Part shown: piece by piece, positions 252 through 63,663 of the stretch
How positions within the stretch are numbered: position 1 is the stretch's first letter
Layout: each line of letters begins with the position of its first letter
Source: Christensenellales bacterium
GTDB taxonomy: Bacteria; Bacillota; Clostridia; Christensenellales; UBA3700
NCBI GenBank assembly: GCA_051883395.1
Contig: JBJETQ010000002.1
Span: 16,456-80,455, forward strand
Direction: 5' to 3'
Length of the DNA stretch: 64,000 bases
Notes under the pieces: generated by a model
Told to the model about the DNA's origin: nothing
What the model saw: the letters and a program-made list of their open reading frames with translations, nothing else
Database searches by the model: none
Made by a program: the position numbers and the translations under genes

Positions 252-277
252 TTTTCTGCCTATACGTATCGACTTTT
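252..277 (-). repeat. Copy of the recurrent A-run/palindrome element (14/16 match to GTCGATACGTATCGAC)
   Basis: The sense (minus) strand reads AAAAGTCGATACGTATAGGCAGAAAA, 6 nt upstream of the GNAT RBS. Confidence 0.6.
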
Positions 278-304
278 AAAAACAAATCGACTTTTAAAAA
301 CAAA
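269..304. repeat. Perfect 18-bp tandem duplication (tcgacttttaaaaacaaa x2)
   Basis: Read directly: 269-286 and 287-304 are identical. The unit duplicates the right arm and flank of the palindrome element. Confidence 0.9.
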
Positions 305-323
305 CGGAACCTTGACGGTTCCG
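296..323 (-). terminator. Intrinsic terminator after the aminotransferase gene
   Basis: On the minus strand, stem CGGAACC/GGTTCCG with a 5-nt loop is followed by TTTGTTTTT, 6 nt after the stop at 329. Confidence 0.7.
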
Positions 324-328
324 CCCTG

Positions 329-1519
329 TTATATCAGTTTCATCTCTTTTGCCAGCTTTTCAAATTGTGCCATTGACCTGACAATCACGTCCTTTGCCAC
401 GCAATAAGCAATTCTCACGTAGCCTTTGCAACCAAAGCTGCTACCCGGCACCAATAACAAGTTGTATTTTTTTGCAATCTTACAAAATTCCTTGTCGTCG
501 TCAACGGGCGACTTGACAAATAGATAAAAAGCTCCCTGCGGTTTGACGTATTCAAAACCAAAACTGTCCAGTCCTTGCGTGAGCAGTTTTTTGTTTTCTT
601 CGTACACTCCCACTTCACAGGTTTCTTCAAGACATTTCTCAACCAGCTTTTGTTGGAGCGACGGAGCGTTGACAAAACCTAAAATTCTCGTCGCAACGTT
701 GCACGCAGCTATCAATTCTTCAAAATCGGCGCAACTATCCGGTATGAGTAAATATCCTATTCTCTCCCCAGGCAACGACAACGATTTACTGTAAGAATAT
801 CCCACGACAGTATTGTCGTACAAAGCAGGCAAAAACTCCACCTGCACTCCGTCGTAAGTAATCTCTCTGTACGGTTCGTCGCTTATCAGATATATTGTGC
901 TACCCCATTTGTCCTGTGCCTTCTTCAAAGTATCGGCAAGCGCCGTCAAAAATGATTTGTCGTACACCACGCCCGTAGGGTTGTTGGGAGAATTGATAAT
1001 TACGGCTTTCGTCTTAGCGCTTATCAACTTTTCCGCAACGCTCATATCAGGTACAAAGCTTGGCGCATTGGCAGGCACTTCAACAATTTTTCCGCCGAAG
1101 TTGTCTATGTAATTGCGATATTCGCCAAAGTACGGACAAAACACCATCACTTCGTCGCCGGGATTGAGCAAACTTTTCAACGCAACGTTCAATCCACCTG
1201 CCGCACCGACAGTCATAACTACGTTTTTCTCGTCGTAGTCGGTGCCGTATCTTTTATTAAAATAATCTGCAACTGCATTGCGGGTAGAAGAAAAGCCGCT
1301 GTTGTTCATATATCCGTGTAACTCGGACGGGTCAACGTCCGACGCAATGCGTACAATCTCCTGACCTATGCAGGCAGGCGGCTTGACGCTGGGGTTTCCT
1401 AGCGAAAAATCAAAAACGTTTTCCTTGCCGTACATTGCCGACAGTCTTTTGCCTTCTTCAAACATTTCTCTGATAGCAGATCCCGACTCTATCATTTTTT
1501 TCATTTTTTCACTTATCAT
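329..1519 (-). CDS. PLP-dependent aminotransferase, class I/II (aspartate/aromatic type)
   Basis: 396-aa ORF with FDFSLGNP near the N-terminus and the PLP-lysine motif SYSKSLSLPGERIGY. The ATG abuts the TAA of the upstream gene. Confidence 0.85.
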   Translation of the reverse strand: MISEKMKKMIESGSAIREMFEEGKRLSAMYGKENVFDFSLGNPSVKPPACIGQEIVRIASDVDPSELHGYMNNSGFSSTRNAVADYFNKRYGTDYDEKNVVMTVGAAGGLNVALKSLLNPGDEVMVFCPYFGEYRNYIDNFGGKIVEVPANAPSFVPDMSVAEKLISAKTKAVIINSPNNPTGVVYDKSFLTALADTLKKAQDKWGSTIYLISDEPYREITYDGVQVEFLPALYDNTVVGYSYSKSLSLPGERIGYLLIPDSCADFEELIAACNVATRILGFVNAPSLQQKLVEKCLEETCEVGVYEENKKLLTQGLDSFGFEYVKPQGAFYLFVKSPVDDDKEFCKIAKKYNLLLVPGSSFGCKGYVRIAYCVAKDVIVRSMAQFEKLAKEMKLI

Positions 1520-1996
1520 TTACTCTCTATAACCTTGTATAGTTATATCAAACCCCCTGTCGCTATAAGACAACGTTATACTTTTTATCATATTTTGTTT
1601 TGCGTCCAGACTTATGACAACGCTGACGTCAAGATTTTCTTTGCCGATAGCCAGCTTAGAATCTCTCAATTTGCCTTCAAAAAGGTATCCGTCCGCCGTC
1701 TTGGTATAATCTCCTTCAAGATTTGCACTTTTCCAGCTGAACTGCATCTGCTGATTGCTCTCGGCAATTTCCAGTTCCAAAGGATTATAAATTTCCCCCT
1801 TCACGTTGCTGTAAACCACCATATCGTCCTGCATTATTATCGTATCTACCCAACTAAAAGAATCTTCGCCAAGATTATCAAATGCACTTTGCATGGCTCT
1901 CGAATCTTTGGTTACTTCAAAAGTCAACACAGATGCGCTCACCATAACGGCTATTATCATGACAAAAAGCAACAACAATCTACCGTTAAATTTCAT
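1520..1996 (-). CDS. Hypothetical signal-anchored protein
   Basis: 158-aa ORF with the N-terminal hydrophobic segment LLLLFVMIIAVMVSASVL. It overlaps the upstream gene by 11 nt and abuts the downstream gene, so it is operonic. I recognise no family. Confidence 0.55.
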   Translation of the reverse strand: MKFNGRLLLLFVMIIAVMVSASVLTFEVTKDSRAMQSAFDNLGEDSFSWVDTIIMQDDMVVYSNVKGEIYNPLELEIAESNQQMQFSWKSANLEGDYTKTADGYLFEGKLRDSKLAIGKENLDVSVVISLDAKQNMIKSITLSYSDRGFDITIQGYRE

Positions 1997-4859: not shown

Positions 4860-4885
4860 TTTTTGTCGATACGTATCGACTTTTT
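4860..4885 (-). repeat. Recurrent A-run/palindrome element, perfect copy
   Basis: The sense (minus) strand reads AAAAA GTCGATACGTATCGAC AAAAA, with a perfect 16-bp palindrome at 4865-4880. It starts directly after the TAA of the methyltransferase gene (4884) and ends 6 nt before the next RBS. Confidence 0.85.
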
Positions 4886-6260
4886 ACACTCTTAGATTCT
4901 TTCTCAATCCCTTAGGATAATGATTTTTTGCTTGCTGTCCGTCGCCCTTGCACCAGCCGCATGCAAAGCCGTCAACGCACACCAGTCCCCAACCCTTAAA
5001 GCCGCAATCAAGCGTATTGCCGTCAAAATACTGAAATATCTTATCGCCGTGCAAATCGCAGTTTATTATTCTTTTTGCCCATTGGGGTTGCAGATATATT
5101 GCCAAAGAATGCGACGGTTCGAATCTGTCCTTTTTAATCTCGCCAAGCTGCAGTCCGCATCTGAGTACCTTTACTCCTTTCAGCGTCGGCAATTGCTGTG
5201 GAACGGCATACAGATTATCCCCAAAAGCCGCCGTAGGAGACAGCTTTACGTTAAGGTTATCTTTTTGCCAATCGTCAAATACTTTTCTTTGCTTTGGCAA
5301 AACACACGGCAGAGAAAACGTTGCCTTCCTTTTTTCTTCGCCCTGCTTTTGCATCACGCAAAAAAAGTGTCCTTCTCCTTTAACTTTGTGCGGAAATATC
5401 CGCTGTGCCAGCACAATATCCTTTATCTTATCCTGAGTATTTTCAATCTTACAATCTTCAAACCTTACCATTGGCTCGACAATGCGCATATCGCAATGCC
5501 TGTTCAAAAATTGTTCAATGGTTTTCTCGTTTTCTTCTATCTCAAAAGTGCATGTGGAATAAACCATTTTTCCGCCGCATCCGAGCATCTTGTATGCACT
5601 ATCCAGTATTGCGCCTTGCCTTTGGGCGCAGGCGGCAACGCTTTCTTCGCTCCACTCGTCTATCGCTTGCGGATTTTTTCTGAACATTCCTTCTCCCGAA
5701 CATGGGGCGTCCACCACTATTTTGTCAAAATACTCCTTCCACTTGTCTTCCAGTTCGTAGGGAGAATTGTTGGTTACCACGGCATTGGGTATTCCCATTC
5801 TTTCGATATTTTGCGAAAGTATTTTTGCTCTTGACGGCACTATTTCGTTGGCAATCAACAGTCCGCTTCCTGCCAGTTTGCAGGCTATTTGCGTTGCTTT
5901 GCCGCCGGGAGCGGAACAAAGGTCCAGCACAACGTCTCCCGGTTCTACACCGAGCGCTTCCACCACGCTCATTGCGCTTGCTTCCTGAATATAATAAAGT
6001 CCTGCTTCGTGATAGGGGTGTTTGCCGGGTTTTTGTTCGTCGTCATAATAAAATCCGCTGTCGCACCAACCCACTTCATCGAGTTGACCTTTCCACAGCA
6101 GCTTCAACTCATTGGCAGACAATTTGAGAGTATTGACTCTCAACGAACAGTAATGAGCTTTGCAATAGCTCGCTTCAAAATCATAATATTCCTGAGCCAG
6201 CAAAGCCTTCATTCTCTCGACAAAAGCCGCAGGCAGCTTGGATATAATCACGCTTTCCAT
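4884..6260 (-). CDS. RNA cytosine-C5 methyltransferase, NOL1/NOP2/Sun (RsmB/RsmF-like)
   Basis: 458 aa with the SAM motif DLCSAPGGKATQ and the catalytic Cys motifs DAPCSGEGMFRK and VYSTCT. Confidence 0.85.
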   Translation of the reverse strand: MESVIISKLPAAFVERMKALLAQEYYDFEASYCKAHYCSLRVNTLKLSANELKLLWKGQLDEVGWCDSGFYYDDEQKPGKHPYHEAGLYYIQEASAMSVVEALGVEPGDVVLDLCSAPGGKATQIACKLAGSGLLIANEIVPSRAKILSQNIERMGIPNAVVTNNSPYELEDKWKEYFDKIVVDAPCSGEGMFRKNPQAIDEWSEESVAACAQRQGAILDSAYKMLGCGGKMVYSTCTFEIEENEKTIEQFLNRHCDMRIVEPMVRFEDCKIENTQDKIKDIVLAQRIFPHKVKGEGHFFCVMQKQGEEKRKATFSLPCVLPKQRKVFDDWQKDNLNVKLSPTAAFGDNLYAVPQQLPTLKGVKVLRCGLQLGEIKKDRFEPSHSLAIYLQPQWAKRIINCDLHGDKIFQYFDGNTLDCGFKGWGLVCVDGFACGWCKGDGQQAKNHYPKGLRKNLRV

Positions 6261-7275: not shown

Positions 7276-7300
7276 TTTGTTGATACGTATCGATTTTTTT
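7276..7300 (-). repeat. Recurrent A-run/palindrome element (14/16)
   Basis: The sense (minus) strand reads AAAAAAA TCGATACGTATCAAC AAA, 7 nt after the stop of the maturase gene (7308). Confidence 0.65.
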
Positions 7301-12252: not shown

Positions 12253-12285
12253 TAAAAAAAGTGCGCCGCTGCGCACTTTTTATTT
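12253..12285. terminator. Bidirectional intrinsic terminator between convergent genes
   Basis: AAAAAAA-AGTGCGC-cgct-GCGCACT-TTTTTATTTTT. Confidence 0.8.
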
Positions 12286-13326: not shown

Positions 13327-14412
13327 TTATTCTACATAAATTTTATCAATTCTTTTTCCTACCCTTGCCAGAAGCTCATATACGGAGCTATCGGAAATGC
13401 TCGCCAAATAATTCAAATCAACGTTGTCGCCCCACATTTCCGCCACGTCTCCGACGCATATTCCGTCTATTTCGCTTGCGTCTATCATACACATATCCAT
13501 GCAGACTCTGCCAACAATCGGTGCCTTTTTCCCCCTGATTTTCACTATGCCTTTATTTGACAACGCCAACGGATAGCCGTCGGCATAACCTATGGCAAGA
13601 GTAGCCAGCAGAGTATCCTTTTGCGCAATCCACGCTTCGTCGTATCCCACGGGCGTACCGGCAGCAACTGTCCTTAGCGATATTACTTTACTATACAAAC
13701 TCATAGCGGGAGCCAGCCGCCCATTACTGTCCCCGTAGCCGTACATTGCCATTCCTATACGCACAGCGTTACCCCATATCTCTCCGCCATTCAATACGTC
13801 GTCGGTCGCCGACAAGTGCAACACTCCCGTATTTATTCCCCTGCTTATCAATTGTTGAGTCCATCGTCTCAATTTTGATTTTTGCGCATACGTATCGATT
13901 TTTTTGCCGTCTTTTGTAGTGTTGATATGAGAAAAAATACCATAGATTTCCACGTTGTCGCTGTCGTTGACTTTTTCTATCAATTTGGTTGCTTCGTCTC
14001 CTATTTCGGCGCCCAGTCTGTTCATATTACAACACACCGCAACGTTGACTCTCGCCACCGTCTTCATTTGTTTTGCGGCAGCCGATATTTCATCGAGATT
14101 GCTTTGGTCCTGCACCGTCAGCACCATATTATATTCCACAGCTCGCCTGACGTCCCGACTCAACAGCGGCTCCAACACCAAAATATCATTTTTGATGTGA
14201 TTTTCAACAAGTTCAATTCCTTCGTCGCACGTTGCCACGCACAATGCGCTCACTTCCTTTTCAACAGCCCCGGACACGGCTACTGCGCCGTGTCCGTAAG
14301 CGTCTGCCTTTACCACTCCCATCACGTTTCTGACCGGCGTCGTTTTCTTTACGTATCTTAAGTTATTCACTATTCGGGCAAGGTCTATTGTAGCATAACA
14401 TCTATCCGTCAT
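13327..14412 (-). CDS. alr: Alanine racemase
   Basis: 361 aa with the PLP-lysine motif VVKADAYGHG and C-terminal VCMDMCMID. It overlaps dat by 11 nt. Confidence 0.9.
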   Translation of the reverse strand: MTDRCYATIDLARIVNNLRYVKKTTPVRNVMGVVKADAYGHGAVAVSGAVEKEVSALCVATCDEGIELVENHIKNDILVLEPLLSRDVRRAVEYNMVLTVQDQSNLDEISAAAKQMKTVARVNVAVCCNMNRLGAEIGDEATKLIEKVNDSDNVEIYGIFSHINTTKDGKKIDTYAQKSKLRRWTQQLISRGINTGVLHLSATDDVLNGGEIWGNAVRIGMAMYGYGDSNGRLAPAMSLYSKVISLRTVAAGTPVGYDEAWIAQKDTLLATLAIGYADGYPLALSNKGIVKIRGKKAPIVGRVCMDMCMIDASEIDGICVGDVAEMWGDNVDLNYLASISDSSVYELLARVGKRIDKIYVE

Positions 14413-20470: not shown

Positions 20471-20497
20471 AAAAAAGTCGATACGTGTAGCTAAAAA
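20471..20497 (+). repeat. Degenerate copy of the A-run/palindrome element (12/16)
   Basis: AAAAAAGTCGATACGTGTAGCTAAAAA. The left arm is intact and the right arm is decayed. It lies in a divergent intergenic region, 19 nt upstream of a small ORF. Confidence 0.45.
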
Positions 20498-20515: not shown

Positions 20516-20677
20516 ATGAAAATTATCAAAACCAACTCAAAGCATAAAATCGGAAAACACGGAATAAAGATGCGCAAAAGTCTCGGCCTGACGTCGCCGT
20601 ACGACCCCAACGGCAGTTATACGGGAACTCCCCTATACAACGATTATACGCCAACGCAAGACGCAGACGATTTGTAA
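20516..20677 (+). CDS. Small hypothetical protein (53 aa), not in the ORF track
   Basis: My translation gives MKIIKTNSKHKIGKHGIKMRKSLGLTSPYDPNGSYTGTPLYNDYTPTQDADDL. A strong RBS, AAAGGAG, lies 5 nt before the ATG. I recognise no family. Confidence 0.4.
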   Translation: MKIIKTNSKHKIGKHGIKMRKSLGLTSPYDPNGSYTGTPLYNDYTPTQDADDL

Positions 20678-20777: not shown

Positions 20778-21341
20778 ATGAAAAAGTTTTCTACTCGTAT
20801 GCTTGCACGAGCAGGCATAATCGCAGCAATGTACGTCGCTCTTACCTTTTTGGTATTTCCTGTAGCGTCAGGCGCAATTCAATTTCGCATTTCCGAAGCG
20901 CTCACCATTCTTCCGCTCTTTTACGTCGAAGCCATACCCGCTCTTTTTGTCGGTTGTTTGCTATCCAACATTATCACGGGTTGCGTAATCGCCGACGTAA
21001 TCGTGGGCAGTCTGATAACTTTGGTATCGTCTTTGCTCACCTATCTGGTCGGCAGATATATCAAATCGACTGCTCTGAAAATAATACTCGGCGGATTGCC
21101 GCCTGTGCTTCTCAACGCATTCTTCCTGCCGCTTATATGGTACTTTGCATACGGCTCGTTAGAATACGTCTATATGATGCAGGTGCTTTTCCTGATAATA
21201 TCGCAAGGCGTTGTAATCTATCTGCTCGGCACGGCGGTTTATTTTGCAGTTGCAAGGCTGTGCGCAAAGGGAATCAAGGTCTTTATGACTACCGGCGTCG
21301 AAACCAACAACAAAGCTCCCGATACAGACGACAAAGCATAG
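20778..21341 (+). CDS. queT: Queuosine-precursor transporter QueT
   Basis: 187 aa. The N-terminus TRMLARAGIIAAMYVALTFLVFPVASGAIQFRISEALTILP is typical of QueT. It has a polytopic topology and a preQ1 riboswitch upstream. Confidence 0.8.
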   Translation: MKKFSTRMLARAGIIAAMYVALTFLVFPVASGAIQFRISEALTILPLFYVEAIPALFVGCLLSNIITGCVIADVIVGSLITLVSSLLTYLVGRYIKSTALKIILGGLPPVLLNAFFLPLIWYFAYGSLEYVYMMQVLFLIISQGVVIYLLGTAVYFAVARLCAKGIKVFMTTGVETNNKAPDTDDKA

Positions 21342-23124: not shown

Positions 23125-25624
23125 CTTGGTTTTTCCTTTTTCTCTTTATCTTTATGCTGTTGGATATACTCTTTATTTTTGCGTTGATTTTATCTCCCCA
23201 CTTTTTGTCCAGTATCTCAATAACGGCGTATAGCGCCGCATGAACCGCAATTCCGCACAGTCCGCCTGCTATTGCGTAAGGCAGATGTCTGACCTGCAAT
23301 ATTTCCAGTCCGAAAAACAGGCTGTCCAGATAAGAAGCGTCGATACAGGCTGCGGAAAAAGTTATTGCAATCATAACTGCTATGACGGCGGTACGCAACT
23401 TGTTGAGCGGCATAGATATAATAACCAGCGCTCCGAAACTCGCCACAACCAGCGCAACGGTCAACATAGAATTGCGATAATTGCCTACGTTTTCCACCCC
23501 GACAAAGTCAATAGAACCGTTGATGGCATAGGTTACAAAAACCGCCACGCACAAGCCTATCGTTGCCGACAGACTGGCTTTGATTATGTTGTGCATAAAC
23601 CTTCCGCTGATACGTGCGTCATTCGGCTGAAAGGCGTATATATAGGTTGGCAGACCAATGACAAACATCTCCACCAGCATAATCTTCTTTGTATCAAACG
23701 GATAGCTCGGAGTATTGGTAACAAGCGTTATGATAGAAAAGGCAAAGGTCATAATCATAATAAAGATGGTCTTCATTATGTACAAGGCAGACACCTTTTC
23801 CATATTGTTGATTACTCTCCTGCCTTCTCTGACTATTGACGGCATAGAAGCGAAATCGTTGTTGAGCAGCACTATTCTCGATATATTGCGTGCCACTTCG
23901 TGCGCTCCCAAAAACGATATCGAACAGTTACTCTGTTTGAGCGCCTGTATATCGTTTACTCCGTCGCCAATCATTCCCACCACTTTGCCTTTATCCTGCA
24001 AAGCCGTTACTATCTCCTGTTTCTGCGACGGCGAAACTCTGCCAAATACCACCGTATCTTCGACATTGTCGGTCAAGCTTTCTGCCGCAACCGAACAATT
24101 GACGTATCTTTCGGCGTTTTTCACTCCTGCTTTCTGTGCTATGTAACTCACCGTTTCGGGGTTGTCGCCCGATATAATCTTGATGTCCACGTCGTTTTGA
24201 TTGAACCAGTCCAACGTTTCCTTGACGTTTTCTCTCAATCTGTCTTCCAGCGCAAACAGGGCAAGCGGTCTGGCAACGCTCTTGTCAGGCAAATCAATGC
24301 TGCCCTGCGCCGACGAGAGCATAATGGTTCTTCTGCCTACGGCGGCGTTGCTATGACAATATTCTTCTATATCTGCGTCGGGACACGCTACGTAATCTGG
24401 AGCGCCCAAAAAGTAGCATTTGTCTGCTATCCTTATTGCGCTGCACTTGCGCAAAGAAGAAAAGCTTCTCACTTCGTCGCATTCGGCTATCGGGCTGTTT
24501 TCAAAATACTCCGTCAAAGCCTTTGCGGTTGGTTTGCTGTCTTTGGTCCAATGGTTGATTGACGCCACAATGCAGTCTATATCTTCGTCGTCGACAAGTT
24601 TTCTTACGTCCGCCACCTTCATCTGACCGTCGGTAAGAGTACCGGTCTTGTCAAGCAACAGCGTATCCACCTGTGCCAGCATCTCAATAGAATAAATGTC
24701 CTGCGGCAACGCTCCCGTCTTGGAGAGTTTGAGAACGGAACCTGCCAACGCCGTGGAAGTAAGCATAAACATACCTACCGGCAACATACCCAATATCGAG
24801 CTTGCAACTGTGATTATCAGGTCTCTCCACTCGCCCGTCATTGTCAGTCTTTCCGACAAAAATATAAACACACCCAACACTACCAGCACGCAGCTGAGAC
24901 ACTTGATAATAAAGTTAAGCGTATTAAAAATCATAGATTCGGGCTTGTTAAACTTGCTTGCTACACGCAAAATCTTTTCGATATAGCAATCTTTGCCCAC
25001 TCTGTCGGCACGACATCTCGCTTCTCCTGCCACGATATGACTTCCTGCCAGAATAGCGTCTCCGACTTTCTTTCTTATAGGAATACTCTCTCCCGTCAAT
25101 ATAGACTCGTCTACTTCCATATATCCGTCGAGCAACACGCAGTCGACAGGTGCCTGCGCCCCTGCGCCCAACACCAGCACGTCGTCCAGCACAATCTGAG
25201 AACTGTCTATCTCGTCTTCCTTACCGTCTCTTATGACTTTTACGCCTGCCTTATATACCACCGTAAGACGAGAAACAGCCTTTTTGGCTTTGACTTCCTG
25301 CCATATTCCGATGATAATGTTGACCAAAATTATGCTGGTTGACAGAGTATAATCCCAAGCGCCTATGCTGCACAGTAAAATTACCAATGCTATACAAACT
25401 ATATTGCAAAAATTAAAAAGATTATCCGCCACTATACGCAGATAAGACTTGCTTTCCTTTTTGCTCTTGACGTTGGTCAGACGGTCGTTCTGCCTTGTTT
25501 CCACTTCCTGCGCAGTCAAACCTTTATCGGGGTCAGGAAAAAGTCTTTCGGCTTTTTTCAGCTTTTGGCTGTCCTTTTGTCTGCCTATTATACGGCTTAT
25601 TTTTTTGTACAAATCTCCCTTCAT
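23108..25624 (-). CDS. Cation-transporting P-type ATPase (P2, Ca2+/Mg2+ type)
   Basis: 838 aa with LTGESIPI, the phosphorylation motif LLDKTGTLTDG and the hinge GDGVNDIQALKQ, plus about 10 TM segments. Confidence 0.85.
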   Translation of the reverse strand: MKGDLYKKISRIIGRQKDSQKLKKAERLFPDPDKGLTAQEVETRQNDRLTNVKSKKESKSYLRIVADNLFNFCNIVCIALVILLCSIGAWDYTLSTSIILVNIIIGIWQEVKAKKAVSRLTVVYKAGVKVIRDGKEDEIDSSQIVLDDVLVLGAGAQAPVDCVLLDGYMEVDESILTGESIPIRKKVGDAILAGSHIVAGEARCRADRVGKDCYIEKILRVASKFNKPESMIFNTLNFIIKCLSCVLVVLGVFIFLSERLTMTGEWRDLIITVASSILGMLPVGMFMLTSTALAGSVLKLSKTGALPQDIYSIEMLAQVDTLLLDKTGTLTDGQMKVADVRKLVDDEDIDCIVASINHWTKDSKPTAKALTEYFENSPIAECDEVRSFSSLRKCSAIRIADKCYFLGAPDYVACPDADIEEYCHSNAAVGRRTIMLSSAQGSIDLPDKSVARPLALFALEDRLRENVKETLDWFNQNDVDIKIISGDNPETVSYIAQKAGVKNAERYVNCSVAAESLTDNVEDTVVFGRVSPSQKQEIVTALQDKGKVVGMIGDGVNDIQALKQSNCSISFLGAHEVARNISRIVLLNNDFASMPSIVREGRRVINNMEKVSALYIMKTIFIMIMTFAFSIITLVTNTPSYPFDTKKIMLVEMFVIGLPTYIYAFQPNDARISGRFMHNIIKASLSATIGLCVAVFVTYAINGSIDFVGVENVGNYRNSMLTVALVVASFGALVIISMPLNKLRTAVIAVMIAITFSAACIDASYLDSLFFGLEILQVRHLPYAIAGGLCGIAVHAALYAVIEILDKKWGDKINAKIKSISNSIKIKRKRKNQDAHQS

Positions 25625-27315
25625 CTTATCCCGACTATCTTGCCCTTTTCGATGTCAAAGCAAAATACCTTTTCTTCTTCGTTATGCGTATATCTTATTA
25701 TTACGTTATTTCCCGCCTTGTCGCAGGATATAATTCTGGCGCCGCTCAGACCTATGGTCTTTTCAAACAATTCTTTGCCCTTTTCGTCATATTCTCCCAC
25801 GTCGTCCGATACCAGGCGCACGCTACCTGCAAGGGCGTTGACCGTTGCCAATATTTCTCTCTGCTCGTCATTGAATTTCAGATTGCTTTTGCGAGCAAAA
25901 AACACGTCGGGGTCGAGAGCAAAGGCTCTGCCGTCAAGATGCCTGCGAAACAGAGTATTGTATATCGAATTTTTGGTACATACAATCTCCTGATTAGTAC
26001 ATTTCGTATAAAATTTTGGTTTGAATGACAAATCGACGTCGCAACCCGTGCGGCACATATCCACCAAGCCCCAACCCGAAGCAAGCGGCATACCGCAACC
26101 GAGAATAAGCTTGTCCCCCACACACTCTCTCAAAAACTCCATCGTTTCGTACATAATTCTGCCACGAGTCTTGTTGTTGCGTGGAATGATACAGGAAGAA
26201 TACAAAAAGTCGAGTTTGACCATATCGTATCCCCATTGGTTGACAATCACGTCAAATACGCCTTTGAGATAGTCTCTCACTTGCTGTTTTTCGATATCGA
26301 GTACGTATGCTCCGCCCCAGGCGACTCCGCCCAATACAGGCTTGCCGTCGGGCGCCGTAAGCAACCAATCTCTATGCTCCTTTACCACTTTGCTGTTGCG
26401 AGCCGCAAGCGTAGGCGCAAGCCACAACCCTGCTTTCATACCCTTTGAGTGAATGGCGTCGGCAAGATACTTCATTCCGTGCGGAAATTTTCTTTCTTTT
26501 ACACTCAACCAATCGCCCGTTGCCGATTGATAGCCGTCGTCTATCTGAAATATATCTATTTTGTCGCCGTAGATCGATATATTCTCCAAATCTCTCAACA
26601 GCTGCTGTTCGGTTATTTTGCCAAAATAATTGTACCAGCTGGTATATCCCGACAGCTTGTCCACTCTCGGTGCAGAAAGAGACAACATTCCGAAATATCT
26701 GTCGAATACGTCGTCATAACCACCCGATAGAACGACAACGTCTATTCCTTCGAACACGTCGCCCTTATCCAAAGTAATGCCTTCTACGTCCTTGGAGAGT
26801 TTTATGCGGTTACGATACGGCTCAAAGCCCACTATTGTAAAGGCATTTTTTTCGTTGAGAGAACCAACAAGATAATATTCGTCGTTGTTTCTCACGTAAC
26901 CGTAACTATATCCGTGAAAAAGCCCCGAAAGATTGGTATATTTGTGGAAACCATAGTCTCCCGACAACGCAGTAAATTTTTTGAAAGGAAAATGCTTACC
27001 GAGACCGAGCAATCCCTTTTCTTTATGAAAGACGCTGACTTCCATACTGGTCGTCCATGATTGATAGCCGTTGCAAAAGATTTTGTCGCTCGTATTGAAG
27101 GCATATTCATAACTCATAGCGCACTCCAAAAGCGAAAGCTTCTTCAATGCGCTTACCTTCATGACAATTCTGCCGTCATCACAATTTACGTCGATTTGCA
27201 GGTCGTTGTTGCTCACGCCCGTTATGTAAACGTTGTCGTCCTGCTCGTAAGTTATCCTTATTCTCAGATTTTCCATATAATACCTGTATTGTATAATAAC
27301 ATCTATGCGTCGCAA
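25621..27315 (-). CDS. Glycoside hydrolase family 36 alpha-galactosidase-like
   Basis: 564 aa with GYTSWYNYF, FQIDDGYQSATGDWL, GLWLAP, VKLDFLY and CGMPL. The start is uncertain: TTG 27315 or ATG 27276. It overlaps the ATPase start by 4 nt. Confidence 0.7.
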   Translation of the reverse strand: MRRIDVIIQYRYYMENLRIRITYEQDDNVYITGVSNNDLQIDVNCDDGRIVMKVSALKKLSLLECAMSYEYAFNTSDKIFCNGYQSWTTSMEVSVFHKEKGLLGLGKHFPFKKFTALSGDYGFHKYTNLSGLFHGYSYGYVRNNDEYYLVGSLNEKNAFTIVGFEPYRNRIKLSKDVEGITLDKGDVFEGIDVVVLSGGYDDVFDRYFGMLSLSAPRVDKLSGYTSWYNYFGKITEQQLLRDLENISIYGDKIDIFQIDDGYQSATGDWLSVKERKFPHGMKYLADAIHSKGMKAGLWLAPTLAARNSKVVKEHRDWLLTAPDGKPVLGGVAWGGAYVLDIEKQQVRDYLKGVFDVIVNQWGYDMVKLDFLYSSCIIPRNNKTRGRIMYETMEFLRECVGDKLILGCGMPLASGWGLVDMCRTGCDVDLSFKPKFYTKCTNQEIVCTKNSIYNTLFRRHLDGRAFALDPDVFFARKSNLKFNDEQREILATVNALAGSVRLVSDDVGEYDEKGKELFEKTIGLSGARIISCDKAGNNVIIRYTHNEEEKVFCFDIEKGKIVGIR

Positions 27316-31900: not shown

Positions 31901-32103
31901 AAAGAGATTTTTCTATAATATAATATATTATACCACCGCTTGTGTGGTTTTTCAATATAAAAGGGACATATATTTTTTCGCGCGCTCGTTTATAATACGT
32001 GCAAACGCCCTATTTTGTTGATTATCGAAGACAAAATTTTTTTGAAAAAATATTAATAGAAGATCTTGGCTTATAAAGAATAAAGACGTAACAGAGTTGT
32101 AAT

Positions 32104-39374: not shown

Positions 39375-40355
39375 ATGTATCAATCTCAACTTAACCTTAT
39401 TCAGACAGAAATAGCAATCAAAACTATCAAAGACAACTTTGAAAAGTTCTTGGCAGGCAACCTTAATCTGACCCGTGTTTCCGCTCCGCTGTTCGTTCTC
39501 AACGATACAGGTCTCAACGACAATCTCAACGGAGTTGAACGCCCCGTAGGTTTTGACATCAAACAGACAGGCAAAAAAGCCGAAGTGGTACACTCCCTTG
39601 CCAAATGGAAAAGATACGCCCTTCATTATTACGGATTTGAAGTGGACAGCGGTCTTTATACCGATATGAACGCAATACGCCGTGATGAAATATGCGACGA
39701 AATACATTCTTTGTACGTCGACCAATGGGACTGGGAAAGAGTTATCAGCGAAGAAGAACGCAATCTTGACTTTCTCAAAGAAATTGTCGGCAAAATATAT
39801 AGCGCAATCTATTCTACCGCTACCGTCATCGAAAGCATGTATTCGCTAGAAAACTTTTTGCCTAAGCAAATAACATTTATTACTTCGCAGGAGCTGGAAG
39901 ATATTTATCCTGATCTCGAACCAAAAGAAAGAGAAAACGAACTGGCAAAGCAACTGGGAGCAATATTTATTATCGGTATTGGAGACGATCTTAAATCGGG
40001 CAAACCGCATGACAAACGTGCTCCCGACTATGACGACTGGGCTCTCAACGGCGACCTTATAGTCTGGTATCCACAGCTCAATCGTTCTGTTGAGCTGTCG
40101 TCCATGGGCATAAGAGTAAACAAAGAAGCCATGCTCTATCAACTCAATAAACTCGGCGCAAGCGACAGGCTGGAACTTCCTTTCCACAAGGCTTTGATGT
40201 CGGACGAATTGCCACTAACGATAGGCGGCGGTATAGGTCAATCCCGTCTGTGCATGGTTCTGCTGCACAAGGCGCATATAGGCGAAGTGCAAAACTCTAT
40301 ATGGCCGGACGAAATGATTGAAGATTGCAGGAGTAAAAACATATTTTTGCTGTAA
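39375..40355 (+). CDS. asnA: Aspartate-ammonia ligase (asparagine synthetase A)
   Basis: 326 aa. N-terminus LIQTEIAIKTIKDNFEKFLAGNLNLTRVSAPLFV and C-terminus GGGIGQSRLCMVLL are typical of AsnA. Confidence 0.85.
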   Translation: MYQSQLNLIQTEIAIKTIKDNFEKFLAGNLNLTRVSAPLFVLNDTGLNDNLNGVERPVGFDIKQTGKKAEVVHSLAKWKRYALHYYGFEVDSGLYTDMNAIRRDEICDEIHSLYVDQWDWERVISEEERNLDFLKEIVGKIYSAIYSTATVIESMYSLENFLPKQITFITSQELEDIYPDLEPKERENELAKQLGAIFIIGIGDDLKSGKPHDKRAPDYDDWALNGDLIVWYPQLNRSVELSSMGIRVNKEAMLYQLNKLGASDRLELPFHKALMSDELPLTIGGGIGQSRLCMVLLHKAHIGEVQNSIWPDEMIEDCRSKNIFLL

Positions 40356-40378
40356 AAGTCGATACGTATCGAAAAAAA
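40354..40378 (+). repeat. Recurrent A-run/palindrome element (15/16)
   Basis: AAAA GTCGATACGTATCGA AAAAAA, beginning inside the asnA TAA stop codon. Confidence 0.8.
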
Positions 40379-40384
40379 TTGAAA

Positions 40385-40411
40385 AGAGAAACGAAAGTTT
40401 CTCTTTTTTTT
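40385..40411 (+). terminator. Intrinsic terminator after asnA
   Basis: AGAGAAAC-gaaa-GTTTCTCT followed by TTTTTTT. Confidence 0.8.
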
Positions 40412-41761: not shown

Positions 41762-42730
41762 TTAACTTCCTAATATTGTCGCTGTCTTATACAGCTCTTT
41801 GTTGAACACTCTCGGCATAGCCAACGCTTCGCTGATGTCGTCGTCTATGATTTGATTGTTGCGTATACCGACTACTCTACCGCCCTTGTCGGCTTTGAGT
41901 ACGTCAACTGCCCTTACGGCAAATTTGGCGGCAAGCATACGGTCCTGCATAGATGGCGCACCGCCCCTTTGGATATATCCGAGCGTCGTCGTCTTGATGC
42001 TTCCTTCAACTCCTTTTTCTTTGAGCTGAGCTTTGAGTTCTTCCGCCTTGCAGACGCCTTCGGCAAGTACGATGATGTCGGAAGTCTTGCCTAGCCTTTG
42101 ATTGCGTCTTATTCCCTTGACGACGTTGTCGATGTTGAACTCAACTTCCGGTACGAGTATAAGCTCAGCGCCACCGCCAATACCGGAATATAGTGCGATA
42201 TCACCGCATTTTCTGCCCATAACTTCGATTATACACACACGGTCGTGGGACGTCATGGTGTCTCTGAGATTGTTGATTGCTCCGAGAACGGTGTTGCAGG
42301 TAGTATCAAAGCCAAGCGTAAAATCGGTATATGCAAGGTCGTTGTCAATAGTACCCGGAATACCCACCGTCTTGACGCCGAACATATCGTACAGGTCTTT
42401 TGCGCCCCTGAAACTTCCGTCGCCGCCAATGACGACAAGTCCTTCGATGCCATAGTCGTCAAGAGCGTCTACCGCCCTTGCCATAACTTCCTTCTGGACA
42501 AACTCCGGACATCTTGCCGTTTTGAGCATTGTGCCGCCACGCTGAATGATGTCGGACACGCTACGTTTGTTCATCATGTTGATGCTGCCTTGAAGTAAGC
42601 CTACGTATCCTTGATTGATGCCGTAAACTTCAAGTCCTTGGTCAATGGCGTATCTGGTAACCGCTCTTATGCAAGCGTTCATACCCGGAGCGTCGCCACC
42701 GCTCGTCAAAACTCCTATTTTTCTCATCAT
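41762..42730 (-). CDS. pfkA: ATP-dependent 6-phosphofructokinase
   Basis: 322 aa with RKIGVLTSGGDAPGMNACIRAV, VVIGGDGSFRGA and PGTIDNDL. Its start overlaps the stop of the upstream TRAP-like gene (ATGATGA). Confidence 0.9.
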   Translation of the reverse strand: MMRKIGVLTSGGDAPGMNACIRAVTRYAIDQGLEVYGINQGYVGLLQGSINMMNKRSVSDIIQRGGTMLKTARCPEFVQKEVMARAVDALDDYGIEGLVVIGGDGSFRGAKDLYDMFGVKTVGIPGTIDNDLAYTDFTLGFDTTCNTVLGAINNLRDTMTSHDRVCIIEVMGRKCGDIALYSGIGGGAELILVPEVEFNIDNVVKGIRRNQRLGKTSDIIVLAEGVCKAEELKAQLKEKGVEGSIKTTTLGYIQRGGAPSMQDRMLAAKFAVRAVDVLKADKGGRVVGIRNNQIIDDDISEALAMPRVFNKELYKTATILGS

Positions 42731-42957
42731 TCTTCTCCGCAGGTCAACTGTCCGTATTTTGTCAGAACAGTTGCTTTACCCCTGATTTTCATAGCAGAAA
42801 TATTTTCTGTAAACTGTACCAAAAGCACTTCGTTTTTGTTGATGCTCTCGGTATGCTGAGGTTTGGTACCGTCCCCTCTAGTCAAGCCTATAATCTGAAC
42901 GTTGTTTTCCAACGCTTTGACCGCTACGTATTCTCCACCGACAAACTGATTGTCCAT
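42727..42957 (-). CDS. mtrB: TRAP (trp RNA-binding attenuation protein, MtrB) homologue
   Basis: 76 aa: ...EYVAVKALENNVQIIGLTRGDGTKPQHTESINKNEVLLVQFTENISAMKIRGKATVLTKYG... It aligns over about 69 positions, at roughly 45% identity, with B. subtilis MtrB as I recall it ([54 protein letters not shown]). RBS AGAGGTGA lies upstream. Confidence 0.8.
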   Translation of the reverse strand: MDNQFVGGEYVAVKALENNVQIIGLTRGDGTKPQHTESINKNEVLLVQFTENISAMKIRGKATVLTKYGQLTCGEE

Positions 42958-49437: not shown

Positions 49438-49461
49438 TTTTTATCGACCTGTATCGACTTT
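49438..49461 (-). repeat. Degenerate copy of the A-run/palindrome element (12/16)
   Basis: The sense (minus) strand reads (TG)AAAGTCGATACAGGTCGATAAAAA, starting within the lysC stop codon. Confidence 0.45.
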
Positions 49462-56018: not shown

Positions 56019-58142
56019 CTAACCAACAAAACCCCAAGTATAGTCTTTTATTATATTATCATTTTTTATGCGGAATGTAAATTGGGAAGACACATAATTT
56101 TTCATTCCTTTTACATATCCGTCTCCGCCTACGCAATATTGCCCGTCAGAAGCCACGTAATCGGACGGTGGATCGAGCAAAATTTGCGAGAAACCATCAT
56201 AAGTAGAAAGCGTAGTTGCCGTAATTCGTATTTGTCCTATACATATACTCGAAGTATATGGTTCTGAAACGTCAACGAACACGTCGCCGTAGTAACCGCA
56301 ACCTGACAGATTGACGTCATCTATCGCAAAAAAGGTTCCGTCGCCAAACAGATGAAGATTGTCGCATTGCCAGTATTGCATACAATAAGTAAGATAATTT
56401 GCATTCGAAGAAGTATAAGACGACGGCTGAGTAATTACGACGGCGTCAATGTTGTCCAGTCTTCTCAGACAATAATATTTGTCAACAAGTTCTCTGCCGT
56501 AACTGCTTAGCTGACCTTTGACGAGCAAAACGGCATAGCCGTCTTTGGTAGTAACCAGAGCATAAGCGTTGCTTCCGTCGTCAAAAGTATCTATTGTAGC
56601 CCGATAGCCCTTGGAGTCGACGACGTTGATAATGCTATTGATAAAACAGACCGCCGCCATAACGCTTATCAGGACAATTTTTGGTTTTTGTTCGGCAAGG
56701 CAATAGTCGGAGATGAAAAACAAAAACGCAAAGTACGGCGCAAAGACGTACCACGCCGACGAAAAGTCCAATATCAACGCCTGACACGCCGCACTCAACT
56801 TGACAAAAGAGATTATGCCGTTGAAAGCCAAGGCAACAAAGGACGCCAGCAATTTGAATGGTGCAAAAAATCCTGCCATAACCGTAAGAAGAAGCATGAC
56901 GGGAAACAATACGGAAATAATCGGAAGAACTACCAGATTTGCCACGATGCAGATAAGCGATATTTGTCCGAAATACATCATGGTAATCGGTAATAGTCCG
57001 ACGTTGACGGCAATAGTCAGAGCTAGCAGCGAACCTATGGTTTTGTTGATTTTGCACAGAAGTCTGCTCAATGGCGCATATAGAGTCATGATACCAACTA
57101 CCGCTCCGAAACTCATAAGAAAACCCAAATCGAACAGCCACAGCGGTCTTATGATAAGTAAAATCAATGCGCCGAGACTGACGGTGGACATAAAATCGTT
57201 GCGCCAGCCAAAAGATGTTGCCACAAGCCCGATAGCTATCATCAAGGTAGCTCTCAATGTGGACGGAGACCAGCCTGTAAGATAACAAAAAAATATCAAA
57301 AAACCGATACATATCGAAGATTTGAAAATTTTATGAATAGGAATTTTGGAGACAATCAACATTATTGCCGCAGCTATTATTCCTACGTGTAAACCCGACA
57401 CCGCAAACAGGTGCGCTGTACCTGTGGCACGAAACGAATTGACTATGTCCGCATCGAGAGAATTGCTGTTGCCAAAGGTCATTGAAAATATAAATTCCGC
57501 CGTGTCGCTATTGCAACAATTGTTGAGAGAAGATTTGAAAAACAGTTGTATCTTTTCGTAAAGTTTGAGATTGTTGGAAACGACGGATAAAGAACCGTCG
57601 CAATAATATGCTTTGTAGCGGAAGTCGTCGTTGAAACGGGACATCGAGTAGCTGTCGGTTATCGCCGCCCGGTATGGATAAACGTCTGCCGTAAGTTCGA
57701 CTCTGTCGCCTAAGTACAACTGTACGTCGGGCGGGAGTGTAAAGCGCAATAAGATTTTGCCTTGCTTTTCTGCCTCGCCGATGCTTACGTCTTCAAGTAC
57801 AAGCTGGCAATAATCGTCAAGAATTATTTTGCCGTCGGCGTCAAAATTGTTGTCTGTGCTTATCCTACCGCTTACTGCCAGTCCCTGACCTTCTATCGGC
57901 TGGCTCGTAGGATTGATGCAAAAGTACGTAATCGTCATTGAAAGACATATAGCCACGCACGACAGCGCCAGCAAGGTTCGCCGCTTGATTTTGGAATAAA
58001 AAATTGCCAGACACAACAGCATGAGAGCAATGACGGCGACAACCGCCACGGCAACCTTGCCGCCAAATCCGGCAATAAGTATCCCGGCAACGAATGCCAA
58101 CGTTATCGTTGGCAAAGGTCGTATGTTGAAAAGTTTTTTCAT
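56019..58142 (-). CDS. comEC: ComEC/Rec2 DNA internalisation channel protein
   Basis: 707 aa with the competence domain motif FRATGTAHLFAVSGLHVGI and many TM helices. In the C-terminal ~240 aa the metallo-beta-lactamase motifs are not recognisable. Confidence 0.85.
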   Translation of the reverse strand: MKKLFNIRPLPTITLAFVAGILIAGFGGKVAVAVVAVIALMLLCLAIFYSKIKRRTLLALSCVAICLSMTITYFCINPTSQPIEGQGLAVSGRISTDNNFDADGKIILDDYCQLVLEDVSIGEAEKQGKILLRFTLPPDVQLYLGDRVELTADVYPYRAAITDSYSMSRFNDDFRYKAYYCDGSLSVVSNNLKLYEKIQLFFKSSLNNCCNSDTAEFIFSMTFGNSNSLDADIVNSFRATGTAHLFAVSGLHVGIIAAAIMLIVSKIPIHKIFKSSICIGFLIFFCYLTGWSPSTLRATLMIAIGLVATSFGWRNDFMSTVSLGALILLIIRPLWLFDLGFLMSFGAVVGIMTLYAPLSRLLCKINKTIGSLLALTIAVNVGLLPITMMYFGQISLICIVANLVVLPIISVLFPVMLLLTVMAGFFAPFKLLASFVALAFNGIISFVKLSAACQALILDFSSAWYVFAPYFAFLFFISDYCLAEQKPKIVLISVMAAVCFINSIINVVDSKGYRATIDTFDDGSNAYALVTTKDGYAVLLVKGQLSSYGRELVDKYYCLRRLDNIDAVVITQPSSYTSSNANYLTYCMQYWQCDNLHLFGDGTFFAIDDVNLSGCGYYGDVFVDVSEPYTSSICIGQIRITATTLSTYDGFSQILLDPPSDYVASDGQYCVGGDGYVKGMKNYVSSQFTFRIKNDNIIKDYTWGFVG

Positions 58143-63208: not shown

Positions 63209-63235
63209 ATACTTCTCCTTATATGAAATAGATTT

Positions 63236-63279
63236 TAAACAAAAAGACTATATTCTGCCTTGATGCAAAATATAGTCTT
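63236..63279 (-). terminator. Leader terminator (attenuator) upstream of the decarboxylase beta gene
   Basis: On the minus strand, AAGACTATATT-ttgcatcaaggcag-AATATAGTCTT is followed by TTTGTTT. It lies between the predicted promoter and the ATG at 63208. Confidence 0.6.
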
Positions 63280-63375
63280 GCTAATTGTGATTGAACCAGA
63301 AAGTTGACTTCCAGGTTGTTGGCTCAACCGCATATCGCTATGCCAGCTACTCCCTATATATTTGATTGTATAATT

Positions 63376-63404
63376 ATATTACCAATAATATGACGCAAAG
63401 TCAA
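63376..63404 (-). promoter_or_regulatory. Promoter for the decarboxylase beta/gamma genes
   Basis: The minus strand reads TTGACT-17 nt-TAATAT with an extended -10 TG (TGGTAATAT). This gives a leader of about 160 nt. Confidence 0.55.
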
Positions 63405-63437
63405 TCGTATATAACAAATTTGTCCCGACGTCTTTAC

Positions 63438-63466
63438 TTGACCACACCGCCTTTACGCTATATAAT
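63438..63466 (+). promoter_or_regulatory. Near-consensus sigma-A promoter
   Basis: TTGACC-17 nt-TATAAT, ending 6 nt upstream of the small-ORF ATG, which implies a very short leader. Confidence 0.6.
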
Positions 63467-63472
63467 ATTGGT

Positions 63473-63643
63473 ATGGAAAACAAAGAAATATACGTGGTAC
63501 AAGAAATTTGCGGCGACTATGCCGTGTTGAGAGCCGAAAACGGCGACCTGTTGGATATAAGCGTCTTTTTGTTGCCTTACGACCTGATGATTGGCGACAA
63601 ACTGGAATGCGTCAACATGCTGGAATATCGTAAAATCCAATAA
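63473..63643 (+). CDS. Small protein, DUF3006-like (56 aa), not in the ORF track
   Basis: My translation gives MENKEIYVVQEICGDYAVLRAENGDLLDISVFLLPYDLMIGDKLECVNMLEYRKIQ. The pattern I..V..I.gd.AvLe.e.G....i....LP......GD resembles DUF3006. Confidence 0.5.
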   Translation: MENKEIYVVQEICGDYAVLRAENGDLLDISVFLLPYDLMIGDKLECVNMLEYRKIQ

Positions 63644-63663
63644 AAAGTCGATACGTATCGCAA
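63642..63663 (+). repeat. Recurrent A-run/palindrome element (14/16)
   Basis: AAAAA GTCGATACGTATCG CAA, beginning inside the TAA stop of the small ORF. Confidence 0.75.

Follow-up and report, generated by a model that had tools for sequence, protein, structure and literature searches.

Background

What does a short palindrome do when it recurs within A-runs at the ends of genes that share no common function? The question arises from a 64-kb stretch of DNA (the window) that belongs to a Christensenellales metagenome-assembled genome (MAG). Christensenellales abound in the gut and have been linked to host health, and to our knowledge their gene-expression signals are almost entirely uncharacterised. 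A first-pass annotation of the window had listed eight copies of the element, oriented with the flanking genes, and had proposed an RNA hairpin, an operator for a dimeric protein or an uptake sequence. Here we revisit these copies and compare them with those of related genomes.

Results

The eight copies are all present on the strands and at the positions first reported (Table 1). Searching the window for TCGATACGTATCGA with up to three mismatches retrieved 10 matches against 2.55 expected, and none of 100 shuffled sequences reached 10, which bears out the claim that the repeats go beyond chance. The exact 14-mer occurs twice (4866 and 40359), and 10-mers from the motif rank among the most over-represented words of the window. 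About two to three of the matches with three mismatches (57304 and 58703) are no more than chance would give.

Table 1. Copies of the palindromic motif in the window, with their gene context, adjoining canonical terminators and counterparts in related genomes
Position (strand)	Type	Sequence	Gene context	Adjoining terminator	Counterpart in related genomes
252..277 (-)	degenerate copy	AAAAG-TCGATACGTATAGG-CAGAAAA	15 nt upstream of acetyltransferase ATG; preceded by a partial tandem duplicate of 18 nt (AAAAGTCGAT) at 278-296	326-302, of the aminotransferase gene; copy lies downstream	only in genomes with the acetyltransferase gene
4860..4885 (-)	perfect copy	AAAAAG-TCGATACGTATCGA-CAAAAA	occupies the 34-nt junction from the stop of an rsmF-like gene (4884-4886) to the RBS/ATG of a 2-hydroxyacid dehydrogenase gene (4849)	scan of 4865-4880: only the antisense (+) strand passes	
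7276..7300 (-)	degenerate copy	AAAAAAA-TCGATACGTATCAA-CAAAT	7 nt past the stop of an anaerobic sulfatase maturase gene	7278-7250; copy overlaps its A-tract	orthologous relics in L181 and L183, decay further advanced
13879..13905 (-)	motif-like stretch	AAAAAAA-TCGATACGTATGCG-CAAAAA	within the alr coding sequence		similar stretch in the alr gene of L114
20471..20497 (+)	degenerate copy	AAAAAAG-TCGATACGTGTAGC-TAAAAA	between divergent genes, 24 nt ahead of the start (ATG) of a conserved 53-aa ORF (20516-20677)		perfect palindrome in L114
40354..40378 (+)	copy	TAAAAG-TCGATACGTATCGA-AAAAAAA	joined to the stop codon of asnA, which converges with pfp	40382-40407, separate and bidirectional, after the copy	
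49438..49461 (-)	relic	GAAAG-TCGATACAGGTCGA-TAAAAAC	joined to the stop (TGA) of the aspartate kinase gene	49409-49382, after the copy and followed by murB	relic with the same altered centre in L120
63642..63663 (+)	1-mismatch copy	AAAAAG-TCGATACGTATCGC-AATTTT	directly 3' of the stop of a 56-aa ORF (63473-63643)	63675-63702, after the copy	

Throughout the clade, the unit consists of an A-run, G, TCGATACGTATCGA, C, and either a T-run or an A-run. Its perfect palindrome, in which two TCGA half-sites are spaced by 10 bp, gives a perfect 6-bp stem (50% GC, three G-C pairs) with GTCG as its head. The unit is 16-26 bp long and has no internal segment; together with flanks that are not exact direct repeats, this led us to reject a MITE. 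Copies occur singly, a doublet organisation was not seen, and isolated half-sites showed no enrichment when it was sought. DNA sampled without bias contained about one copy per 8-17 kb. No Rfam 15 covariance model matched any copy at its gathering score, nor did any at E values of up to 1, and the motif sequence was not found in the literature searched. Viral contigs contained only two matches, and a phage origin was rejected on these grounds.

The copy inside alr is present as annotated, but its membership in the motif family is doubtful, and it may be a chance or coding similarity. We also rejected an in-frame insertion into this gene, of the kind known as Rickettsia RPEs, because the stretch shows no insertion when compared to solved alanine racemases.

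Comparison with relatives supported a lineage-specific element: about ten related genomes, with AsnA identities of at least 88%, also carry the motif, and the next relatives lack it. A genome scan gave 114 matches, about 34 of them in seven related assemblies and the others as singletons in unrelated taxa; three more related genomes (L117, L121 and L122) were reached via AsnA homologues. Relatives with 70-73% AsnA identity presented no motif after asnA, nor across the 18-21 kb around it. The matches outside the clade are chance singletons, and the motif family is restricted to one narrow group of uncultured gut Christensenellales. The variant TCAATACGTATTGA, seen once (in L117), was considered as the dialect of a sister lineage and rejected, since none of its 55 metagenome matches had the A/T-run frame or canonical copies alongside. 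It is a one-off double CpG change.

At the level of gene context, seven of the eight window copies are intergenic (p about 1e-6 to 1e-8). Five of these seven start within 15 nt past a stop codon (p = 3e-4; genes ending at 4884, 7308, 40355, 49461 and 63643), and the copy at 20471..20497 is the sole clear one in a 5' region. Nearly all of the 46 sites found in the clade loci at up to two mismatches are intergenic as well, with a stop codon 3-5 nt from the motif at 18 of them; copies in coding DNA are rare and doubtful in both data sets. The stop adjacency first described for the window stood for most intergenic copies, but as a fixed distance it did not. At the junction between rsmF and the 2-hydroxyacid dehydrogenase gene, where orthologs in four genomes carry the motif, the gap from stop codon to motif goes from 3 to 51 nt between genomes, and the gap from motif to start codon is steady at 16-19 nt. 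About 25 orthologous groups divide into about 16 co-directional, seven convergent and two divergent ones; for the convergent sites at 40354 and 63642, the sense strand can be defined only relative to the adjacent upstream gene. The neighbouring genes lack a common function (pcrA|ligA, ispE|spoIIR, rsmF|2-HADH, asnA, aspK|murB, a ferritin-like gene and a flavoprotein, among others), and those in the window include amino-acid genes (asnA, aspartate kinase, aminotransferase).

All strong copies in the window have A-runs on both sides in gene orientation. The annotation had described the element as A…A and not A…T, which is right for this window and does not extend to the related genomes: these have 23 A…T, 16 A…A and no T…A copies, with AAAAAG-palindrome-CTTTTT as the commonest form. 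T-run copies are found at operon ends or between convergent genes and nowhere else, and A-run copies either fill tight operon junctions or have a separate terminator after them. With sites sorted by hand into groups and contexts, tight operon junctions comprised six of the 12 A…A groups versus none of the 13 A…T groups (Fisher p = 0.005). The downstream flank of the motif depends on its context.

The window contains separate canonical terminators beside five of the copies, in agreement with the first description. That the element is not simply a terminator is also true there, given the downstream A-runs and the terminators alongside. A hairpin followed by a T-run, the feature of intrinsic terminators, is missing from the window copies and is seen as a pattern only in the A…T copies of relatives. 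About half of these A…T copies have a separate canonical terminator at most 110 nt away, so they are not required for termination there. In many cases the element interrupts the A-tract of a terminator that was there before it, and a generic terminator of the window (12256-12281) also has the AAAAAG…CTTTTT frame.

Conservation was assessed on orthologous copies. The core of the asnA copy is invariant in six genomes, CpG-decayed in two and absent from two more distant relatives. In most of those six genomes the terminator directly downstream differs in sequence, and the adjoining intergenic DNA is hardly alignable among them. About ten further orthologous groups are common to two to four species with both flanks syntenic, and several orthologous groups besides the asnA copy are perfect in three to four species. 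Orthologous decayed copies lie at the aspK/murB, anSME and rsmF junctions. The altered centre of the aspK/murB relic is common to the window and L120, so its decay predates the split of the two species. The changes in decayed copies are mainly CpG transitions, and decay has affected over half of the orthologous instances in unbiased samples. The spread of the family predates the divergence of these species, and selection on the sequence itself keeps some copies unchanged; others are decaying relics. Moreover, the gene-proximal arm is preferentially retained: degenerate copies present 12 changes in this (sense 5') arm versus 35 in the distal one (p = 0.001), a stronger form of the orientation originally claimed.

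Regarding mobility, no presence/absence polymorphism was seen that would indicate it. For RAYT/IS200-type transposases, tblastn of IS200 TnpA and E. coli RAYT (reconstructed query sequences) against about 0.42 Mb of sequence around motif copies from the clade gave nothing below E = 0.1. In one related genome (L043), two motif copies and a direct repeat of about 40 bp surround a module of two genes, and the DNA downstream of asnA is variable between genomes. A recombination or cassette site was nevertheless rejected as a general explanation, since about ten orthologous groups are syntenic on both sides.

When folded in silico, the perfect A…A copy reached -6.7 kcal/mol and most imperfect window copies only 0 to -1.7 kcal/mol, with the exception of the relic at 49444 (-5.5 kcal/mol, via different pairing). 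The A…T form reached -10.4 kcal/mol with an 11-bp stem. Variant copies paired no better than shuffled controls, with essentially no compensatory change. The stem-loop of the motif is thus predicted to be weak, and this weakness and the lack of covariation make a function as RNA structure no more than a candidate. The RNA hairpin put forward in the annotation fared poorly for the same reasons.

Discussion

We tentatively propose (probability about 0.42) that the motif is a REP-like, lineage-specific family of extragenic palindromes in transcribed gene flanks, which has a putative sequence-specific partner and would terminate transcription only when a T-run follows. Its copies would occupy presumably transcribed flanks: past stop codons, between cistrons before the next ribosome-binding site, or beside canonical terminators. 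The transcript of a T-run copy would fold into a stem-loop of 11 bp, extended by A/U pairs, with a U-tract behind it, and could act as a weak bidirectional intrinsic terminator. Wherever termination would do harm, the A-flanked version, which does not terminate, would be the only one to persist, and its survival would lead to the A…A pattern that always appeared on the sense strand in the window. Since the sequence is constant rather than the structure, a sequence-specific partner is suggested, possibly a protein whose target is the sense-strand half AAAAGUCGAUACGU of the RNA or, in DNA, the palindrome. If REPs are a guide, the role could be the stability of mRNA 3'/5' ends or the insulation of cistrons.

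In its behaviour the motif appears to resemble the repeated extragenic palindromes of other bacteria. REP/BIME sequences of Enterobacteria and Pseudomonas are also short palindromic units that occur many times per genome and hardly ever within genes; they lie in transcribed 3' flanks or in the spacers between cistrons, are rare in promoters (transcription being presumed for our motif), and have a family sequence conserved within the lineage. They are not terminators alone, and their roles include mRNA 3'-end protection and the binding of proteins (gyrase, IHF). However, our motif is shorter, perfectly palindromic and AT-flanked, whereas REPs are GC-rich with an imperfect stem. Its GTCG head lacks GT[AG]G, it occurs as single copies rather than BIME/REPIN doublets, many of its copies have a terminator-like A…T frame, and its host is a lineage of Clostridia. 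No RAYT was found either in the 0.42 Mb of clade DNA searched with the reconstructed queries.

Bidirectional intrinsic terminators resemble the A…T copies, which have exactly their frame, reach -10.4 kcal/mol when folded and lie at operon ends or between convergent genes. Ordinary terminators conserve structure and not sequence, whereas this motif is invariant in sequence while the neighbouring terminators drift. It also differs from them in its 6-bp stem with three G-C pairs, in window copies without a sense-direction T-run, and in that half of the A…T copies adjoin another terminator. The mycobacterial TRIT is a sequence-conserved palindromic 3'-UTR motif found after many unrelated genes, often convergent ones, whose own terminator activity is doubtful. 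Our motif is similar as a palindrome recurring downstream of unrelated genes, often between convergent ones, and differs in sequence, length and phylum.

Sequence constancy would be explained equally well at the DNA level, by a protein-binding palindrome with A/T-tract flanks, a reading that we consider somewhat unlikely. The 16-bp palindrome and its phased A/T tracts would be bound by a putative clade-specific dimeric DNA-binding protein: a nucleoid-associated one, a gyrase/IHF-like one as at enterobacterial BIMEs, or a Noc/ParB-like one. Such a site would be tolerated only outside promoters and coding DNA, and the A-or-T flank would be a side constraint against intra-operon terminators. The two symmetric TCGA half-sites, conservation in sequence and not in structure, a distal flank that takes A or T tracts and never gives T…A, copies beside unrelated genes across the genome, and the scarcity of copies in divergent promoter regions all agree with it. 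Yet a symmetric dimer site should not favour one arm according to gene orientation, as the 12 versus 35 changes do; fusion to stop codons and the constant spacing to the next start are left unexplained, and the decay of over half of the unbiased orthologous instances also counts against it.

The motif could also be a selfish or neutral relic without host function, which would have spread through gene-adjacent A-rich tracts in the clade ancestor and would now be decaying, its apparent conservation being due to gene conversion or slow decay. We regard this as unlikely. Many relics shared between species, their CpG transitions, the absence of covariation and the split A-tracts of pre-existing terminators point in this direction, and so does the aminotransferase junction, where the motif occurs only with the extra acetyltransferase/AraC genes. 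Against it, the asnA copy is identical in six genomes despite the poorly alignable DNA next to it, other groups are perfect in three to four species, flank type tracks operon context, and neither an insertion polymorphism nor, in the 0.42 Mb searched with reconstructed queries, a transposase was found.

A strand-specific tag of cistron boundaries in mRNA, whose linear AAAAGUCGAUACGU rather than its hairpin would be recognised by a clade-specific protein or RNase, seems rather improbable to us. Placed past stop codons and 15-25 nt before the next start, the tag would set points of cutting or stabilisation in polycistronic transcripts. It would account for the retention of the proximal arm, for sequence conservation without covariation and for the constant spacing to start codons.

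Even less likely is a DNA uptake signal like the Neisseria DUS or the Pasteurellaceae USS, one of the roles proposed at first, and we give it very little credence. We know of no case of sequence-specific DNA uptake in Firmicutes, and the comEC gene located in the window is not diagnostic, being nearly universal. The similarities are a conserved sequence restricted to one lineage and A/T-rich flanks, with the sequence forming the stem of terminator-like hairpins, frequent at operon ends. USS and DUS are known to make up terminator hairpins, and USS generally have at least 1,000 copies per genome (Kingsford et al. 2007, PMC1852404). At one copy per 8-17 kb, the density of our motif is at least 10-fold lower; genes are nearly free of it, isolated half-sites are not enriched, and copy orientation follows the genes. 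Moreover, the motif is one self-complementary unit, whereas DUS/USS hairpins are made of two inverted copies of an asymmetric signal.

Finally, the operator of a regulon, for instance of aspartate-family amino-acid genes, is close to refuted: despite a palindrome of operator size and the amino-acid neighbours in the window, the clade-wide neighbours are unrelated, the sites lie past stops, between convergent genes or 15-25 nt before starts, where a promoter would not fit, and the density is far above that of a local regulator. The dimeric-protein operator of the annotation, in its classical sense, is unlikely given the unrelated neighbours and the avoided promoter regions. Other candidates were dropped by inspection: a Spo0A 0A-box (TGTCGAA) fits only where a T-run precedes the G, LacI/cre-type operators mismatch in the half-site, an ECF-type -10 element (CGTATC) lacks a conserved -35, and a -1 frameshift site would have no spacer and overlap the stop codon. 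Pairing to the 16S rRNA 3' end was discarded in the same way.

Conclusions

A symmetric element can look oriented in a single genome, as here with A…A on the sense strand, when only a filtered subset of its forms is present there; the filter would be selection against intra-operon termination. If the motif is merely a decaying REP-like repeat, its interest is chiefly descriptive. As a sequence-invariant element of cistron and operon boundaries, it would serve as a clade marker and as an aid for annotating transcription units in MAGs of these gut bacteria, and it might help to find a factor that binds RNA or DNA in a sequence-specific way.

Results

All eight copies of the 16-bp palindrome listed in the first-pass annotation were found at their positions and strands (see table). 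As claimed there, the repeat exceeds chance: with up to three mismatches to TCGATACGTATCGA, the window held 10 matches against 2.55 expected, a total not attained in any of 100 shuffles (of the 3-mismatch matches, two or three are at chance level). The exact 14-mer occurs twice, and 10-mers of the motif rank among the window's most over-represented words. On a gene map built from simple codon usage and NCBIfam/Pfam names, seven of the eight copies are intergenic. Five of these seven start within 15 nt past a stop codon (p = 3e-4), which bears out the reported proximity to stops, and separate canonical terminators are indeed present beside five copies. The copy inside alr is doubtful: in comparison with solved alanine racemases, it does not correspond to an insertion.

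Coordinates of the features in the window and in loci from related genomes (L numbers)
Feature	Window (strand)	Related loci
Intergenic palindrome copies	252-277 (-), 4860-4885 (-), 7276-7300 (-), 20471-20497 (+), 40354-40378 (+), 49438-49461 (-), 63642-63663 (+)	
Palindrome copy inside alr	13879-13905 (-)	
Tandem duplicate of TTTTTAAAAGTCGAT, 18 nt apart	252-296 (-)	
Generic terminators with AAAAAG…CTTTTT frame	12256-12281	
Conserved 53-aa ORF, DPNGSYTGT…QDADDL	20516-20677 (+)	L114 7888-7998
QueT transporter gene	20778-21341	
564-aa gene	25621-27315	
102-nt direct repeats	27318-27419, 27452-27553	
~95-nt repeat, three window units	32084-32528	L018 7665-7938, L092 7705-7808, L065 1996-2054, L079 3348-3424, L100 6832-6886
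77-aa gene with TrpBP-domain orthologues	42727-42957 (-)	
Motif-like variant in comEC	57299-57317	
Motif-like variant in HAD-type hydrolase gene		L124 7214-7233, L181 18119-18138
Candidate structured 5' UTR	63238-63357 (-)	
Variable island downstream of asnA copy		L043 4383-5952; L121, L122 10982-12640; L123 10982-20981

A species-level scan (one genome per species, query AAGTCGATACGTATCG) gave at least 114 loci. Among the matches listed, seven related assemblies, labelled Christensenellales or 'uncultured Clostridia', contributed about 34; the remaining ones were singletons in unrelated phyla, at chance-level expectation. Several loci of the related assemblies have orthologous counterparts in the window (76-87% nucleotide identity). 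Viral contigs held only two matches, and a phage-borne origin was rejected on this basis. A compensated 'dialect', TCAATACGTATTGA, was also discarded, its metagenome matches being chance-like.

The site past the asnA stop was tracked through AsnA homologues, and thus without ascertainment by the motif. The core was perfect in six genomes with AsnA 93-100% identical to the window's, present and decayed via CpG-to-CpA changes in two at 88-89%, and absent in two at 70-73%, where a canonical terminator directly follows the stop and the 18-21 kb examined contained no copy. Therefore, the family is confined to a narrow clade and is older than the divergence of the clade's species. In the six genomes the motif is invariant, and the terminator directly downstream differs in sequence in most; selection at asnA targets the motif's sequence and not the hairpin alone.

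About ten more orthologous groups are common to 2-4 species with synteny on both sides, on which grounds a recombination or cassette site was rejected as a general role. Decay was also seen: the aspK/murB relic has an altered centre that the window and L120 share, and the anSME copy was decayed in all three genomes compared. At the rsmF junction in four genomes, the window copy is perfect, one is altered at the centre only, and two lack the distal arm. Fusion to the stop codon is frequent (a stop is 3-5 nt away at 18 of 46 clade sites), not fixed: at rsmF the stop-to-motif distance is 3, 3, 11 and 51 nt, and the distance from motif to ATG is steady at 16-19 nt. The asnA site has an extra 5-6 nt spacer in the two more distant genomes. 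For two groups (20471 with its L114 orthologue, and L117:1944) the site is in a divergent 5' region, and the aminotransferase-junction motif occurs only in genomes that also have the downstream acetyltransferase/AraC genes.

Changes in the copies are mostly CpG transitions, and they fall unevenly: 12 in the gene-proximal arm vs. 35 in the distal one (p = 0.001, a few copies being oriented by their better half). A hand tally of gene-context-oriented copies only kept the bias, at about 9 vs. 28. This retention of the proximal arm supports the earlier proposal of an oriented element. The suggested RNA-hairpin role gained no support from covariation: across 24 distinct aligned copies, stem pairing held in 78.5% of cells vs. 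79.4% in shuffles, and a double change affected one stem pair only. The copies had no match among described RNA families.

In gene orientation, the palindrome of the strong window copies has an A-run on either side. Across the clade, sites with at most one mismatch comprised 23 of class A…T (AAAAAG-palindrome-CTTTTT, a 26-bp palindrome), 16 of class A…A (or T…T on the opposite strand), none of class T…A, and two outside these classes. Thus, the statement that flanks are A…A and not A…T holds for the strong window copies and fails for the family; it describes a window trait. Flank class follows gene context. With orthologous groups as units, grouped and assigned to contexts by hand, tight operon junctions (next start codon about 15-46 nt away) accounted for 6 of 12 A…A groups, for instance rsmF/2-hydroxyacid dehydrogenase, pcrA/ligA, and ispE/spoIIR, and for 0 of 13 A…T groups (Fisher p = 0.005). 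The A…T copies occupy the space between convergent genes or positions far upstream of the following gene, and their AAAAAG…CTTTTT frame also occurs in generic window terminators.

Folding energy was -10.4 kcal/mol for the A…T form (11-bp stem), -6.7 kcal/mol for the perfect A…A form, 0 to -1.7 kcal/mol for most imperfect window copies, and -5.5 kcal/mol, through a different pairing, for the 49444 relic. About half of the copies, of both classes, have a second terminator-like hairpin within 110 nt; therefore, the element is often redundant as a terminator. Where a canonical terminator comes next, the motif's 3' A-run doubles as the A-tract of that bidirectional terminator, which partly explains the A…A flanks.

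Other repeats and genes nearby

The tandem duplicate directly upstream of the 252-277 copy repeats the 5' part of the element, as a small local duplication. Two unrelated coding regions contain a motif-like variant, AAAAAACCGATACATATCG[G/A], with palindromic arms (CCGATA…TATCGG) in the hydrolase gene; these may be family members or chance matches.

The long spacer that follows carB holds units of another dispersed repeat family, each about 95 nt. A unit has a long inverted repeat inside it (GGCAACTTTT…AAAGTTGCC) and no Rfam match; the family recurs in several relatives, often within 50-300 nt of a palindrome copy. A pair of 102-nt direct repeats (95% identity, 134 nt apart) lies in the spacer downstream of a 1417-aa gene and upstream of the 564-aa gene.

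A variable island directly follows the asnA copy. Three genomes carry an inserted two-gene module (a 190-aa protein and an XRE-type HTH membrane protein), bordered in L043 by two motif copies within a ~40-bp direct repeat; L123 carries instead a Hachiman-like HamA/helicase pair, an Abi_2 protein, and an integrase.

The 53-aa ORF, without a Pfam match, lies upstream of the QueT gene, whose leader showed no preQ1 riboswitch. A possible structured 5' UTR precedes the Na+-translocating decarboxylase beta-subunit gene: this leader gave a sub-threshold Rfam match to the Streptococcus sRNA SSRC10 (41 bits vs. gathering score 56, E = 3e-4) and a weaker one to yybP-ykoY. The 77-aa gene, flanked by a PFK paralogue and dnaE, has orthologues with the TrpBP domain (PF02081) of the TRAP/MtrB tryptophan RNA-binding attenuation protein, best known from Bacillus.

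Discussion

Our preferred reading, held tentatively at a probability of about 0.4, is a lineage-specific, REP-like family of extragenic palindromes in transcribed gene flanks. It is clade-restricted and ancient, mixes selection with decay, has context-dependent flanks, and retains its proximal arm. T-flanked copies would terminate transcription weakly in both directions. Within operons, or where a real terminator follows, the A-flanked version, which does not terminate, would be the only one to persist, and its survival would produce the sense-strand A…A pattern. A putative sequence-specific partner would keep the motif sequence constant.

A palindrome bound by protein at the DNA level would also account for the sequence constancy; it leaves the strand asymmetry unexplained, and we consider it a less probable reading. 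A decaying repeat without function is unlikely, being contradicted by the six-genome asnA invariance beside drifting terminators. Less likely again is a 'cistron-boundary tag' in mRNA that would be strand-specific and recognised as a linear sequence. The DNA-uptake signal suggested earlier is improbable: the motif occurs about once per 8-17 kb, compared with 1,000 or more USS per genome (PMC1852404), is near-absent from genes, shows no enrichment of isolated half-sites, and has oriented copies. An operator for a regulon is hardly credible, as neighbour genes are unrelated and sites lie past stops, between convergent genes, or too near start codons for a promoter.

Among known systems, enterobacterial REP elements are among the closest in working. 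However, the motif family lacks the GT[AG]G head, and a limited RAYT/IS200 transposase search of 0.42 Mb of clade DNA, with IS200 TnpA and E. coli RAYT as queries, detected none. Terminators containing DUS/USS, as sequence-conserved hairpins, are also among the closest, but the density here is too low for USS, and the window copies lack a terminator's T-run in the sense direction. Mycobacterial TRITs are also sequence-conserved terminator hairpins to which the family can be likened. The motif sequence was not found in the searchable literature. These are short interspersed extragenic palindromes at gene ends, of a kind not described before in the host lineage.
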